64,000 nt of DNA. Origin: Lingula anatina (taxonomy: Eukaryota > Animalia > Brachiopoda). How positions within the stretch are numbered: the first letter of the stretch is position 1; every line of letters begins with the position of its first letter. Under the pieces are notes generated by a model. It made no database searches, was not told where the DNA came from, and worked only from the letters and a program-made list of their open reading frames with translations. A program made the position numbers and the translations under genes. The stretch is taken from positions 11,346,001 to 11,410,000 of the forward strand of contig CM120641.1 of the NCBI GenBank assembly GCA_051362555.1. The letters run 5' to 3'. This document shows, piece after piece, positions 40,401 to 49,400 of this stretch.

Positions 40401-43400
40401 AGAAAAAACAAAGACATAAAAATGTGTCATAAAAACAAATTTGATTCAGAAAATTTGAGATGAAAATGTGCATTTTGCGATCAAAGTATTGACCATCTTG
40501 AGAAGATGACCAAATCAGAAGCAACTTCTCTTTTCCAAAATTCAATTTGGCAAGCACTAGTAGCGTCAAGTGTGTCTACCTGGCAGACAACAGGTCCACA
40601 GAAGCTGCCTCCCTCTTGCTTCCTATCTACCAGTCTACTGAATGAGTACAATTAATCTGCCGCACATACTTTGTCACCCACTGAGAGGTTTTGTACTGAT
40701 GCAGCGCCTAAGTAGTAAGCTGGGAGAAAATCAATATTATTACCACAGCCAGGAACAGAGAGGCTACCATCCAATAGGTGTCCAAGGTACTGAAGAGGTG
40801 TGGCTTCTCGTCACAGCATCACAACAGCAACCATATTTGAAGAAGAATTGAGTAATACACAATGCAGCCTTCAAGATGCCTTACATTTTAAAATCATGTG
40901 TCATTCTTCGTTCATGATTTTTTTCCTTTTTGTTGTCATTCAGATTCATGTCTTATCTTGTTGAACCATCTGACAAATTGTGCCAACATCATTTATATTA
41001 CTTCATGGACTCATTTGTCACTTAGTATATACTTTAATAGACTTATAAAACATTCATGGTCTGCCTACAACCAGAGACAATGTCTGTCTTTTTCCTAGTA
41101 TTGTGGAAAAGCAAGTCCCCAGAATATTCTGTATGTCAAACACTTACTATTTGTCTACTTGTACATGTACTATTATAATGGTAATTTATTTCCAATTGAG
41201 AGAGTGACAATGACTTAGATATTATACACAAACCTTACGTACAAGGTTCGCTTTGGGGTAAAATATTTTTCAGGCAAATAGCTGATCCTTCTTGCTATAT
41301 CAAAATTTTGAACTTTTATAATTATAAATTTTTCTGAAAACAGTAAGATAATTAACATTTTCCTTGGCCAAATTAGATGTTCAGCATTGGGTTACAATTT
41401 ATAAGCTGTAGAGAGTTCATCTACATAGATTTTCAAAAAGTTTTGATTGTGCAGATTTTTAACATATCATTGTCAAGCAAAAACTATGATGTTTTATGTA
41501 ATACAATGATTACAACTACTGGTTTTACCGTAAGAGGAATTCATATACAAACAAATAAATATCAATAAAATGCTGCACCCTTATTATCTGAAGAGGCTCT
41601 TTTTTTATCTTGTTAAGAAATATGGTATGACATGCTATGGTATGGTATGGTATGGCCCAAAATGGCATGACATTAATTGATGTGAAATTGAATGCCATGG
41701 AGTAAAATGGGAAGGAACCATAGAAGCATTCTTTATTACCTATGTCAATTTTCCATGGATTAATATCTGCTACATTTTTTCAACATAATCAAAGAATTCT
41801 TCAAATATAAAAAATATCTTTAAAGATGAAAAAGACACAACTACAATAATTCATACCACAAAGTGAACGTTATAAAAAAACTTAAAATGTACATGACAAA
41901 CACAAAAAAGTAATCTGTTAAAAGATGAAAAAAAAGCAACCATCAGTCATATCACAAACCACATGCTTCTTACTTATTTTGTAAATCAAGCTCAGTTGAG
42001 GAGGATATAGTCTAGATAAGTAGCCAGATTAATATCCAGACAAATTACTTGTAACAATACAGACTTCAACACGCAGATGGTTACATACTTAAAAGAGTTT
42101 ATAATCACTATTATGTCAGTGGTCATATAGTTTGGTTTTCATGGATTAGGTCAGAATTGAATAGAGGCAATTACCTGTGAAGTACAAATTTGATTTTCAA
42201 CTACTTTATATCACAGGCACAAACTCTACTTGTGTCAAATGAAATGAAGAACATGACAGGAATAACCTTAATACAAACACGAGTTGAAACCTCATGCCAT
42301 GAAACCACCAACTTAAAAGGACTCTTAATCACACAAAAACATACTGTGTGCTTTACCAAAATATTGTATAAGCACTTATTCTATTTCATTTTGTTTTATT
42401 CCATTTTATTTCATCTATTTTCCTTATTTATTTTTTATTCATTTATATATTTTTCCAATTTTTTTACTGTCTAAAGTTAAAAATATTTCAACTTATATAG
42501 TATGGTTTTATCAGAGTCATATACCAATATAATGGTATTTATTTCTCCAATAGAGAGTACCAATGGTATAGATATTGTATTAATAGAATAAATGCAAAGG
42601 CCAAGGATACAATCTAACTGAGGACACATCCAGCAAAAGTTTCTTTTTCTACGGACAAGTAAAAATCTTTCCATTAAAGAAAACATCAGAGGCAACTTAT
42701 GAAATAACCAGGGGTTCCTGGGATATCATATATATTATTGAAATTCTTTTAGCAAATCATAGGCTCAAGAATGAAATACTCTAAACCATTGTTCATGCTA
42801 TTCACATAGCAAAGTGAATATGATATTTGCCAAGAAATGTCAAAGAAAATTTTCCAGAGATATTTTCTGTCCTTTTATATCTAAGTCTTGAATATCAAGC
42901 AATTTTGTGGAGCCATAACACTGAAAGTGCTTAATGCTTTAACCTTGGGTATTACTTATTTTTGGGTGCACTGGAGTCAAGGAACCTTTTTCAACATAGC
43001 TAGACTGACATATGGGTTTCAGATAGCTTTTGACTAAACAACTCCCATATATAGGCCTTTTCAGAAATGAAAACACAACCATGGTGTCACATGACCTATG
43101 AAGCAGACAAGAGAAACTTGCAAACTTAGCTTGTGTTAGGGTGTATTCCCAGACATTTAGATCCATCTATCCCCGTGGGGAGTCTCACTAGATTACTGTC
43201 AGATAATCCGGCTTAAATGACCGTCCTGCCTACTACAAGCTGTAAGGGGGTAAATAACTTTAGTGCCCGCTCGGCTGACAGCTATTTAGCGCGAACCCCC
43301 AGGAAGTTAGGTCGATCTAGTTTGGATCGATCTAATCTCTGGGAATGGGGTCTTAGGCACTGCTATATGGACCATTGGAAAGGTATTCAATACCTGCATG

Positions 43401-46400: not shown

Positions 46401-49400
46401 TCATGTGTACACTTAATAAACACGATAGTGCCTCGCCCCCTCCTGAGATGATTTCAGGTGACAAGGACATGTTGTTCACACCCAGGACACACCCAATGGT
46501 AGGCCCTAGTTCACATGTACTATTGTCCATTTTGGATATGTGCAACATATCTGTACTTTTACTTCAGGTAAATGACCTTTATGTCAACATAATAGTTAAT
46601 TCAAAAAAAAAATATATATATACAACAAATGTCATCCACTAATGAGCCCTCAGTTAGTATGTCTTTATAAAAACCTGACTTCTATCCAAATCGTCTGATG
46701 TGGTCAACAGTTTGTGCGGTATACAAGCCAAGGCTCTAGAGCCTCAATCTTTCTTAGATATGCTTTTTGCACAGCAATAAACTAACAACAGACAGCCATT
46801 ATTGTTGTCAAACAGCTTCCTAAGAAAAATCACTCTTAATTAACTCTATTACTGTAATCTTGTTCCACTACTATTAGTTCTGTTCAACCCGGTTATTTTT
46901 TTCCACATTGTTAATATTATCTTATTTCTTTTTCCCATACTTTTACAGTACAAACTTTGAAAGTTATCGACAACTTTATAGATCAGAGTGAAAAAATCAA
47001 AGTTCTATTGCAAAAAGGTGAGCAACGAGATTATCCTGAGGTTACAGAGATTCCACATTTGTTAATGGATCAGTTTAACAAGGCAACATGTTGTAAACCA
47101 ATATCGCAGTCCTTTGGAGGTCATGAAAAATGAGGCAGAAGAGAGTGAATAATTTGTGAGAAATACAACATAATATGCACGAAAATACATCTTCAGGAGC
47201 CAAATGTAACTGCTGTCAGCTATCTTCTGCCATATCTAGAGTTATCAACTTTACACAGGGTAGACTGAGGCCGTCTTCTGGAAGACAGTCAGATTTTCAA
47301 GTTTACCTTGACGAGTAACTAATTTTTTATGTCGGAAGACTCAAAAATGGAGGATGGATCAACAGAGATCATTTGGAAGACTGTCAGAAACTAACGCTGG
47401 ATCCGCCCATTTACATATTTTTGAACATATTATTTTTCTTTCTATGTTCTACATACTGTTTAAAAGATGTTAGATAGTACACATTTTGAAAACTGTCACG
47501 TTGGTCACCATAAATATTTGGCCTGTCATTTGTATATGACAACTTATTTCCTCTTCCAAACATCAGCAATTCAATATACAACCATCCACAATAACAGATC
47601 CAGAAAACATAAAAGAGAATTTAAAATGTTACACTGGACCAAAAAAATCTGGGATTTATGCTTCCCTGCAAACTTTAATCATGTAATGAAAATCACTCTT
47701 CTTAAAGATGCACTGCCCAAAGTATTAATTACATAAGAAGTAACTAGCACTTCTTAACATTCTGAGCCTACTCAGTGTGCTCACTGTTAATACTCTGGTG
47801 CTGTTGATGAGGCAGAAAACCACCTGCTAATCCTGGTGAACTAATGATCTCTTGCTCCTAAGTACCACGCTTTTGACCCACATTTGCACTAAAAAGGTCT
47901 GACCACTAGCCAAGTGTCCACAATACAGTGGTCAACATAAAGATTAGCTGTTGTGGTCATACCTTTTGTACACCTGCCTCTCTCATTAATATCTCTCTCT
48001 CACATAACACACTTGTATTAGCAAAGATAATCCACAGTGTGGGGAACTGCCTAGAAACATATTTGAACATTTCTCACAACAGAAAAATTATGTGGGGGTT
48101 ATTCAAAACCATCATGGGACTAGGAATAAAAAAATGACATGAATTTGGAAATTGGCTTGATACGTTCGGATAAACAAAAGTATAAAATTTCCTTAGTTAT
48201 AGTAGCTACTTTCTATAGCCTAAAACTAACTGCCCAACTTTGTATCAAATCTTCTCTCCATTAGCAAAACCTAAAAAAATTCAATGATATCTTTCAATAC
48301 AGAAATGTGCATGCAAAAACTTCCTATGACCAAGGAATAAATTTTAAGTGAAACAATGTGCATGTACTAGCATCAGTTGAAAATAAAGATGCACATCATG
48401 CCTCAGTGATCAAAGCTATCGGTAATGGCTAGAAACTATCGGAGCAAACTTTTACAATTATTAGTTGTATAAGTTTTAACACTTTTAAACATGAAAATAT
48501 TCAAGAGTGTAACAGATGCTTTTGACATCTGATTGACTTCATTACAAAAATAAAAGAAGAAAATTTCAAGTTCTCCGAGAAGATCAAGTATGTGGTTTGT
48601 TTTTTAAACTTCTAACTGTGAAATATTTCAACCATGTCAGCAATAGCAATCGAACATGGCTTCTAAGTTACTGCCTATTGAAGCTTCTAAACAATAGTTT
48701 ATTACCCCCCAGCAGCTTCAGTAGGCGTGCCAAGCATCAGAAAGCTGAAAACAATTTAGCAAGAAACTCCTCAGAAATGGGTCGATCCTGCTAGATCAAT
48801 CTATGTATGGGAACAGGGTCTATGTACACCTACATCCTTGCTATATAGTTATGTTTCACTAAAGTTATGTATTCTATTCAAACATCATCCTATTAGAGAT
48901 GAATTTGAACCGAGCATGGATTCCCAGTAATGCAATATATATTTGTTTTTATACAAATCAAATCAAGTGGACATGCCAAAGGATAAACCAAATTAATCAC
49001 TCAATCAGCCATAAAAGTGCTTTAAAAGTGCACCTTCTTTAAATTTTTAGTTGTAAATTTGGCCTTATCTGACCTACTTATCTGTGCCAGTTATACCCCT
49101 ATTTCACACCAACTATGAATTATGAACCAGGAATAGATCTTACTTAAATTGTGATAAATTCTTTAAGATCTTAAGTGATTCTTATTCATTTTGATGCATT
49201 TGTTGCAATTCTTGAGAGACTCTGAAATGGGGACAAAAGTTTTGAGCTGTTCAAAATTTCAGTACATTCTTAGATACCATAACTGATTCCTGGTACAGGG
49301 GCGTAACCAGACCATTTAAAATTGTACGCACAGATTTTGAAAATTCCCAGGTACGATTATATTCCGTGAAAAATACACTGAATTTATGGAGAATAATATC

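Follow-up and report, generated by a model that had tools for sequence, protein, structure and literature searches.

The question raised by this locus is whether the plus-strand span 42554..47255 of the window (the whole stretch of 64,000 nucleotides analysed here, from the brachiopod Lingula anatina) retains a dead gene and, if so, of which kind. A preliminary description had read the span as the fossil of a gene for three TIR domains, a kinase and a KEN domain, lying antisense in intron 3 of hyccin. From the sequence, we put a probability of about 0.7 on the stretch being a dead pseudogene of an IRE1/RNase L-type kinase-KEN gene. Its 3' half is likely a very old remnant of a gene with introns that encoded a non-canonical kinase-KEN ribonuclease; a custom profile test would place the kinase at ~45080-46230 and the KEN domain at ~46340-47133. 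That the front module was TIR is doubtful even if the fossil is real; otherwise, this part would be another domain or plain intron DNA.

The antisense placement inside a hyccin intron was borne out by the following features.

52501..52635, minus strand: coding exon of hyccin (FAM126) that precedes the host intron (Pfam PF09790, E 5.6e-16; spliced in RNA to the exon starting at 40394)
40395..52500, minus strand: hyccin intron of 12,106 nt hosting the remnant (RNA joint, CT..AC ends; acceptor score)
40351..40394, minus strand: hyccin exon that follows the host intron, 3' end approximate (sequence and translation; RNA joint)

Removal of intron 40395-52500 in RNA was recorded by 25 reads of run X12 and 4 reads of run X18 (none listed for runs X15 and X20). 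The name 'intron 3' is valid only with coding exons counted, in a numbering that we take to be that of the human gene. No Rfam match was present in positions 40000-53000.

Standard searches of the span were blank. Pfam gave no match in the read-through frames (0/6) and no TIR, kinase or KEN domain in 61 fragments, where only 9 weak unrelated matches in 8 fragments were seen (E 0.006-0.1). Likewise, no match was obtained with phmmer against PDB (two of three plus frames), with phmmer against a library of 1.84 billion proteins (one frame of 43700-47291, E 0.001) or with standard hmmsearch on 36 frame combinations, and an Atlas search with exon 3 returned nothing usable. The remnant would have decayed to the extent of a simulated 0.35-0.5 substitutions per site plus indels, and decay that heavy would leave standard tools blind.

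The 3' half of the proposed fossil is composed of the following pieces.

45081..45614, plus strand: probable kinase remnant, N-lobe to activation segment (profile test; VAIK at 45181-45192)
45615..46010, unstranded: multi-copy repeat that interrupts the kinase part, made up of three diverged units of 130-160 nt
46011..46230, plus strand: probable kinase C-lobe remnant, subdomains IX-XI, up to the donor at 46231 (tile rank 2/338)
46339..46567, plus strand: proposed exon 3, probable kinase end and start of KEN, register uncertain (open frame; acceptor and donor)
46949..47133, plus strand: proposed exon 4, probably carrying the two final KEN helices and closed by the stop 47131-47133 (KEN profile, junction, open frame)

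These pieces were scored with a custom codon-level, frameshift-tolerant Forward profile test, from which the proposed introns and one repeat were excised. A kinase profile matched exon 2 with z 3.7 (2/500 shuffles); other kinase families were negative in this test, as were Pfam, PDB and hmmsearch for the kinase domain. The VAIK block has a chance expectation of 0.02 in the region, the jackknife drop for 45081-45614 is 3.3 bits, and a catalytic-loop-like stretch can be seen by eye at 45432. For the C-lobe piece 46011-46230, the jackknife drops are 5.6 and 3.6 bits, and hhalign places it at profile columns 249-279 (P 0.071). Initial sub-domain register assignments in exon 2b and exon 3 were rejected (z -0.6 and -1.1).

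A pooled KEN profile scored z 2.8-2.9 on exons 3 and 4 (4/500 and 2/500 shuffles); four other KEN profiles gave z -0.4 to 1.8, the canonical one being at -0.4. Exon 3 has little score of its own (hhalign P 0.43, columns 295-309), and exon 4 was placed at columns 397-409 (P 0.32). At the exon 3/4 junction the exact splice site scores best of 13 offsets; at the exon 2/3 junction it is only twelfth of 13. The catalytic motif of KEN is given as R-x4-6-H in the accessible text of PMC3710099; no intact R-x4-H is present in the remnant, and the best KEN register has neither R nor H at the motif position. This register ends at the stop 47131-47133, so that the terminal part of the originally proposed span, 47134-47255, is probably not coding. 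FVRNTT at 47153, considered as a KEN motif, was discarded: it adds no score and lies beyond the stop of the better register.

The joined exons 2-4 without the repeat reached z 4.3 and 4.2 against a profile of 59 non-canonical kinase-KEN sequences. Scores as high were found in 0/600 shuffles (two block sizes), 0/120 + 0/120 block-permuted profiles and 1/722 same-shape native controls, near +15900; the p-values are optimistic, because the region was picked by a motif-seeking reader and several profiles, boundaries and settings were tried. Eight other family profiles, including two of other kinases, gave z -1.3 to 0.0. With the 59-sequence profile, z climbed from 0.5-0.9 to 2.1-2.3 on excision of the introns and to 3.2-3.3 on further excision of the repeat; the uncut DNA was weak (z 0.5-2.6) and was equalled by 2/136 native windows. 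The true exon order ranked 2 of 24, and unconstrained hhalign arranged three open-frame pieces in the correct order along the profile, each non-significant alone. Heavily decayed simulated fossils reach z values of the observed order, with a median z of 7.6 at decay 0.35 and 1.6 at decay 0.5.

The signal depends on the profile: an anthozoan-only profile gave z 0.6-1.6 and canonical IRE1, built from 44/112 metagenome loci whose frame was of sufficient length, z 1.2-2.5. Of 30 single-sequence profiles built from unrelated proteins, three gave z values of 2.9, 3.3 and 4.0. No signal was obtained in the local mode of the Forward test (z 0.6-2.1). Viterbi alignments disagree between profiles; the canonical IRE1 profile scored 15.3 vs a background of 16.1 ± 1.7, with no single-frame match, and the Xenia and pooled profiles remained at background level. 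Ungapped 14-column scans produced many out-of-order matches, which we consider noise. Modest support for ordered kinase and KEN remnants on one strand comes from the custom test, after excision of introns and repeat, and none from standard tools.

The splice sites named in the preliminary description as strong are all present as AG or GT, and most of them rank high on a generic splice score: acceptors 46948, 44615 and 46338 are at ranks 3, 10 and 45 among 3544 plus-strand AGs, and donors 46231 and 46568 at ranks 44 and 24 among 3222 GTs. Donor 44215 reads TTG|GTACAT. Acceptor 42553, however, is weak (rank 368/3544). Acceptors with a score of at least 7 number 16 on the plus and 17 on the minus strand, splice-like sites are about equally dense elsewhere on both strands, and arithmetic on the ranks gives a density of strong sites in the span no higher than the chance share of 4.7 kb in the window.

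This density is one of the points in favour of there being no fossil at all, that is, of AT-rich intron DNA split by repeats and carrying chance splice-like sites and motif-like peptides. The blank standard searches, the equal-scoring chance region in the same window and the behaviour of the uncut DNA (z 0.0-1.8, or matched by the native windows mentioned above) point the same way. Such an origin is nevertheless unlikely: the signal is family- and order-specific in two non-overlapping parts, the boundaries came from splice signals and read depth and not from the scoring alignment, and exons 3 and 4 contain long open frames (73 codons in exon 3, with 44/1000 shuffles as long; the frame of exon 4 was matched in length by 25/1000). 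We consider it quite improbable that the remnant comes from a duplicated and decayed canonical IRE1 gene, or that a fossil kinase came by chance to lie beside unrelated 5' DNA, with no special sensor in either case. The canonical IRE1 profile did score z 2.0-2.5, and no test connects 42554-44950 with the kinase; yet the non-canonical profiles were higher in each comparison, the IRE1 luminal profile gave z -1.5 on the 5' part, and the canonical KEN profile failed as stated above.

The stretch is dead, in agreement with the preliminary description. Stops and frameshifts occur along the whole translated stretch, the stop density in long segments equals the intron background with no intact frame, and indels in the stretch vary among individuals. 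RNA reads on the unique kinase part 44812-45475 had depth 0 in 4/4 runs, which is weak evidence for death since hyccin's own exon bins are at only 0-4.2. The present-day copy is likely functionless and decaying neutrally. No paralog at ≥80% identity was detected in the DNA or RNA read runs examined.

The 5' half and the repeats in and beside the span are listed below.

42554..44214, plus strand: proposed first exon; TIR, ankyrin, TPR, death, GT4 and IRE1-luminal profiles at or near chance (acceptor 42553 weak)
43156..43353, unstranded: very high-copy repeat with inverted ends (MITE-like), within the proposed first exon (depth, joints, loose ends)
~43518..43640, unstranded: multi-copy repeat, the 3' limit being a bin-depth estimate (joints run into 43518/43522, with a hairpin joint at 43590-43605)
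43669..43802, unstranded: repeat, also present at 48946-49082 (73% in blastn over 140 nt, E 1.8e-16)
44215..44615, plus strand: proposed intron 1 of the fossil (acceptor rank 10/3544)
44616..45080, plus strand: front of proposed exon 2, ~150 codons ahead of the kinase, without TIR signal (no kinase score in blocks 44950-45129)
47273..47408, unstranded: high-copy repeat directly 3' of the remnant (depth 3e5-4e5, loose ends on both sides)

The repeat at 43156-43353 has a contig depth of ~1e6 vs ~40-125 on unique parts, with opposite-strand joints and with loose ends at 43156; that at 43518-43640 has a bin depth of 28,000-34,000. The preliminary description was silent on all five repeats, four of them within the span and one at 47273-47408. 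In a second organism (organism B, run X11), reads cover the repeats only.

A test for three TIR domains gave z 1.3, -0.2 and -1.6 with profiles of 8, 18 and 35 sequences, all bacterial and none metazoan. Simulated triple-TIR fossils had a median z of 4.0 at decay 0.25, 3.7 at 0.35 and -0.7 at 0.5; at the heavy end of the decay implied by the kinase the test has no power, so that the triple-TIR reading is unproven but not refuted. The Pfam TIR families PF01582 and PF13676 were found in 0/6 frames and 0/61 fragments, and no PDB TIR chain was matched by two short pieces; both resources have little power for TIR here, since they also miss the kinase. The best matches to six TIR motifs are each expected at least 0.2 times by chance. 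Tandem self-similarity was absent at any lag (56/60 shuffles higher), and a 41-nt self-match 42724/44077 (E 0.019) was lost in a banded pair-HMM test. The TIR-like pieces aligned with each other were uninformative. Readings of the 5' part as ankyrin, TPR, death, GT4, IRE1-luminal or second-kinase sequence were not supported by profile tests either; three ankyrin profiles, one from only 3 repeats, gave z -1.3 to 1.4.

The full triple-TIR reading, a TIR-TIR-TIR-kinase-KEN pseudogene whose protein would have clustered its kinase-KEN part by TIR self-assembly and thereby started to cleave RNA, is one case of the kinase-KEN fossil and has to be judged against these results. By eye, resemblance to TLR-type TIR motifs occurs at 42709-42830, 43385-43640 (one frame), 44102-44214 and 44847-44935, and ~500 repeat-free codons ahead of the kinase leave room for three such domains. 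The tile at 44071 ranks 21/682 with the bC-aC-bD part of a pooled TIR profile, and one segment reached z 2.6 (6/300) with the 8-sequence profile. This last score fell to 1.7 and 0.3 with the larger profiles; the best by-eye TIR, 43385-43640, has its second half inside the multi-copy repeat 43518-43640, and hhalign did not place two TIR-like pieces in the expected register. A TIR profile matched 0/353 proteins retrieved in the kinase-KEN searches, no TIR occurred among the Atlas matches listed, and no intact TIR-kinase-KEN protein was present among the best 120 of 151, 120 of 744 and 120 of 1247 homologs. Our search of openly accessible text, in part of titles and abstract beginnings, found no TIR fusion with Ribonuc_2-5A or PF06479; the domain-architecture panels of PMC10400998 may bear on how new such a fusion would be. 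A precedent for TIR domain shuffling is oyster TIR-STING, described in the accessible text of PMC10732462, where an animal TIR is joined to an immune module, the partner domain being different from the one proposed here. In sum, no test confirms three TIR-like domains, and for a family with RNA cleavage driven by TIR assembly neither a TIR signal nor a triplication was found, nor such an intact protein among the matches listed. We regard the triple-TIR gene as unlikely, and hold an equally low expectation that the locus marks a novel invertebrate triple-TIR-RNase family with diverged intact members still in the genome.

The kinase-KEN reading of the 3' half is best viewed beside known systems. 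RNase L (ankyrin-pseudokinase-KEN, 2-5A-activated) has the type of C-terminal module proposed here and works by induced dimerisation; the 5' part of the remnant gave no ankyrin signal. IRE1/ERN1 also has the kinase-KEN module, but a luminal-domain signal is missing from the remnant and the canonical profile scores below the non-canonical one. According to the accessible text of PMC10400998, the RNase L lineage is confined to jawed vertebrates and there are non-RNase L clades of kinase-KEN proteins; this text and that of PMC9334734 describe OAS-type enzymes as present and classical RNase L as absent in invertebrates. The best-scoring profile class for the 3' half is that of non-canonical kinase-KEN proteins (PF00069 + PF06479) of invertebrates and fish, such as the Xenia expansion (P0014, P0033, P0121-P0156), the fish 'irlD-like' protein (P0163) and the ankyrin-kinase-KEN proteins of anthozoans and Branchiostoma (P0171, P0191, P0166). 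In them, as proposed for the remnant, a KEN domain directly follows the kinase, and their front ends are variable; the Lingula copy, in contrast, is dead, and no single relative aligns with it significantly by standard tools. Homolog searches revealed no close relative among the matches listed.

By analogy with this family, we would expect the living ancestor to have encoded a latent RNase, in which an N-terminal sensor or assembly module dimerises the kinase, the KEN domains pair and RNA is cut, most probably in immunity or stress response. A TIR front end, if true, would represent an architecture absent from the homologs listed and the literature found, with a direct link from Toll-type assembly to RNA destruction. 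As supported, the finding carries little weight beyond another dead copy of a family whose expansion and exchange of front ends in invertebrates are already known; it hints at non-canonical IRE1/RNase L-like genes in this animal, at present or in the past. The copy may have belonged to a family that evolves by birth and death and can exchange its front ends; sensor swapping is seen in the family, with ankyrin, TPR, death, TROVE and macro fusions among the matches listed.

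The hyccin gene lies on the minus strand of the window, animal DNA with a G+C content of ~35%. Its exon 52501-52635 matches PF09790 (Pfam, E 5.6e-16) and is spliced to the next exon, at 40394; the CT..AC intron between them is 12,106 nt long and supported by 25 reads in RNA run X12 and four in X18. The proposed remnant (42554..47255) falls within this intron and reads on the plus strand, which confirms its antisense nesting in hyccin. The intron is presumably 'intron 3' if coding exons are counted as in the human gene. A 185-codon Ser/Lys/Thr-rich open frame behind a good acceptor at 12935-13492 (-) is probably the last hyccin exon. 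The CpG-rich stretch 58250-58696, which adjoins expressed repeats and has a long open frame on each strand (148 and 117 codons), may lie near the hyccin promoter. The proposed exons and the repeats are as follows:

42554-44214 (+), exon 1
43156-43353, repeat in organism A DNA contigs; very high-copy short family with inverted ends (MITE-like)
~43518-43640, repeat in organism A DNA contigs
43669-43802, repeat with a second copy elsewhere in the window
44616-46230 (+), exon 2
45615-46010, repeat in organism A DNA contigs; three diverged 130-160-nt tandem units with go-back joints in contigs
46339-46567 (+), exon 3
46949-47133 (+), exon 4
47273-47408, repeat in organism A DNA contigs; a second very high-copy short family with inverted ends (MITE-like)

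Pfam gave no match to the proposed domains for six read-through frames and 61 fragments. Searches of the PDB (two frames), of 1.84 billion proteins (one frame) and of the Atlas protein collection (exon 3) were blank, as was hmmsearch over 36 frame combinations. Real family members were therefore fetched for profiles of our own. A metagenome motif scan yielded 112 IRE1 loci, of which 44 had sufficient length for profile use, and three homolog searches contributed the best 120 of 151, 120 of 744 and 120 of 1247 matches.

Frameshift Viterbi alignment to kinase-KEN profiles found nothing, and neither did the local mode of a custom Forward algorithm, in which codon emissions are blurred by neutral decay. 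Near-global mode on the joined exons gave z (score relative to shuffles) of 2.3-3.6. The main run, in which exons were joined at their exact splice ends and compared with a profile of 59 non-canonical kinase-KEN proteins (PF00069 plus PF06479, other than canonical IRE1), reached z 4.3 and 4.2. This score was equalled by 0/600 shuffles for either of two block sizes, 0/240 block-permuted profiles, and 1/722 same-shape native controls. Both halves contribute: 2/500 shuffles for the kinase columns against exon 2 alone, and 4/500 for the KEN columns against exons 3 and 4. Profiles of eight other families, among them myosin-III and MAP3K kinases, remained at z -1.3 to 0.0. The z rises from 0.5-0.9 for uncut DNA to 2.1-2.3 for exons with the repeat and 3.2-3.3 for exons without it. 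Among the 24 possible exon orders, the true one ranks second (2/24). The score is located at VAIK (45181-45192), 46011-46200, and 46960-47094; in the best register, KEN covers exons 3 and 4 and ends at the stop 47131-47133. The open frames in exons 3 and 4 are 73 and 60 codons long, lengths reached by 44/1000 and 25/1000 shuffles. Using hhalign, three open-frame pieces were placed in order at profile columns 249-279, 295-309, and 397-409, each insignificant on its own. Simulated fossils of relatives at ~30% identity had median z values of 7.6 and 1.6 at 0.35 and 0.5 substitutions per site, which bracket the observed value.

The rival reading is a chance match in a region that was preselected by eye, with several settings explored. 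A chance region near +15900, one of the native controls, scores as high as the remnant. With single-sequence profiles of unrelated proteins, z values of 2.9-4.0 were obtained in 3/30 cases. The outcome also varies with the profile chosen: an anthozoan-only one gives z 0.6-1.6 and canonical IRE1 gives 1.2-2.5, and optimal alignments disagree between profiles. Of the two splice junctions, only one is best at its exact site (1/13); the other ranks 12/13. Of the kinase and KEN remnants named in the preliminary description, the main-run z of 4.2-4.3 speaks in favour, while Pfam, PDB, Viterbi and hmmsearch do not recover them. We consider a real kinase-KEN fossil probable (about 0.7). The one native control that equals the remnant against the kinase-KEN profile, 16162-17374 (+), shows no clear motifs in its alignment and is treated as chance.

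The three TIR-like domains fared worse. Triple-TIR z values were 1.3, -0.2, and -1.6 with profiles built from 8, 18, and 35 bacterial sequences, the largest being TLR-like. With the larger profiles, the z of the best single segment fell from 2.6 to 1.7 and 0.3. For simulated triple-TIR fossils, the median z was 4.0 at decay 0.25, 3.7 at 0.35, and -0.7 at 0.5, so that this test leans against TIR and loses power where the fossil may lie. The best matches to six TLR-type motifs are each expected at least 0.2 times by chance, the best sub-domain tile ranks 21/682 (13 tiles in the region), and no tandem self-similarity was detected. The most convincing TIR candidate picked by eye is one frame over 43385-43640; its second half is not simply old coding sequence, since a multi-copy repeat starts at ~43518. 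Nor did the 5' half give a signal with ankyrin, TPR, death, GT4, or luminal profiles. The complete triple-TIR-kinase-KEN architecture is considered unlikely. A TLR-like bacterial TIR subfamily (loci L268-L297) is present, frequently more than once per genome, in 33 of the 301 genomes sampled in the class to which G001 belongs.

The splice sites described as strong look real for the most part: acceptors 46948, 44615, and 46338 rank 3, 10, and 45 of 3544, but 42553 only 368. Donors 46231 and 46568 (exon ends 46230 and 46567; exon 1 ends at 44214) rank 44 and 24 of 3222. These sites are not evidence on their own, because the plus strand has 16 and the minus strand 17 of this strength.

The view of this copy as dead is well supported. 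No intact frame was found in the remnant, and the stop density of its long segments equals that of the surrounding intron. From four RNA runs, 6-30% of each run was mapped at 80% likeness; depth was 0 across 44812-45475, at most 0.2 across 46140-46803, and high only in repeats. Low depth is weak evidence of silence, since hyccin's own bins reach only 0-4.2. None of the 15 RNA joints listed (46 more exist) matched a plus-strand intron. In DNA contigs from three runs of organism A (two studies), unique parts of the remnant had a depth of ~40-165, and no additional copy at ≥80% identity was apparent among the 32 pieces listed (23,271 more exist). The insert 45615-46010 is multi-copy and satellite- or Helitron-like. 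Repeats 43156-43353 and 47273-47408 are present in many poly(A) RNA reads, with traces in organism B. At 42802-42811, 7+2 bases of the window are missing from 3/3 organism A DNA runs; other indels vary between these runs, and many sites at 42480-42550 differ between individuals.

In the kinase-KEN family, two kinase domains are drawn together by a front module, whereupon the KEN domains pair and cleave RNA via an R-x4-6-H site (PMC10400998, PMC3710099). In the ancestor of this locus, a front module would have paired two kinase domains, bringing the KEN domains together for RNA cleavage. No R-x4-6-H site occurs in the best register, and with neither this site nor a frame or reads the present locus most likely does nothing. 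TIR-driven assembly of kinase-KEN would be a reasonable idea by analogy with oyster TIR-STING, a precedent for TIR shuffling (PMC10732462). No description of TIR-kinase-KEN was found in the literature searched, a scope outside which most subscription papers and figures fall. As far as it is supported, the remnant represents a dead gene of an already known kind. PMC10400998 reports that kinase-RNase proteins other than RNase L are found across eukaryotes and have gained ankyrin independently, and PMC3710099 reports KEN fusions and lineage-specific expansions.

Non-canonical kinase-KEN proteins among the matches listed came from octocorals, anemones, amphioxus, acorn worm, and fish; the acorn worm relative has a Pfam match for the kinase only. 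Fusion partners among these matches were ankyrin, TPR, death, TROVE, and macro domains. No TIR Pfam family appeared among the matches listed in the three homolog searches, a TIR profile hit 0/353 fetched proteins, and the nine Atlas matches listed for the kinase-KEN query contained no TIR. This does not amount to absence, because the word-based search was crowded by cnidarian and canonical matches. Xenia (P0014, P0033, P0121-P0156) shows a large kinase-KEN expansion, many of its proteins having at least two tandem kinase-KEN modules with TPR, death or TROVE partners. Anthozoans and unnamed ENA records contain many long ankyrin-kinase-KEN proteins (P0238-P0353); their layout is RNase L-like, yet they occur far from vertebrates.
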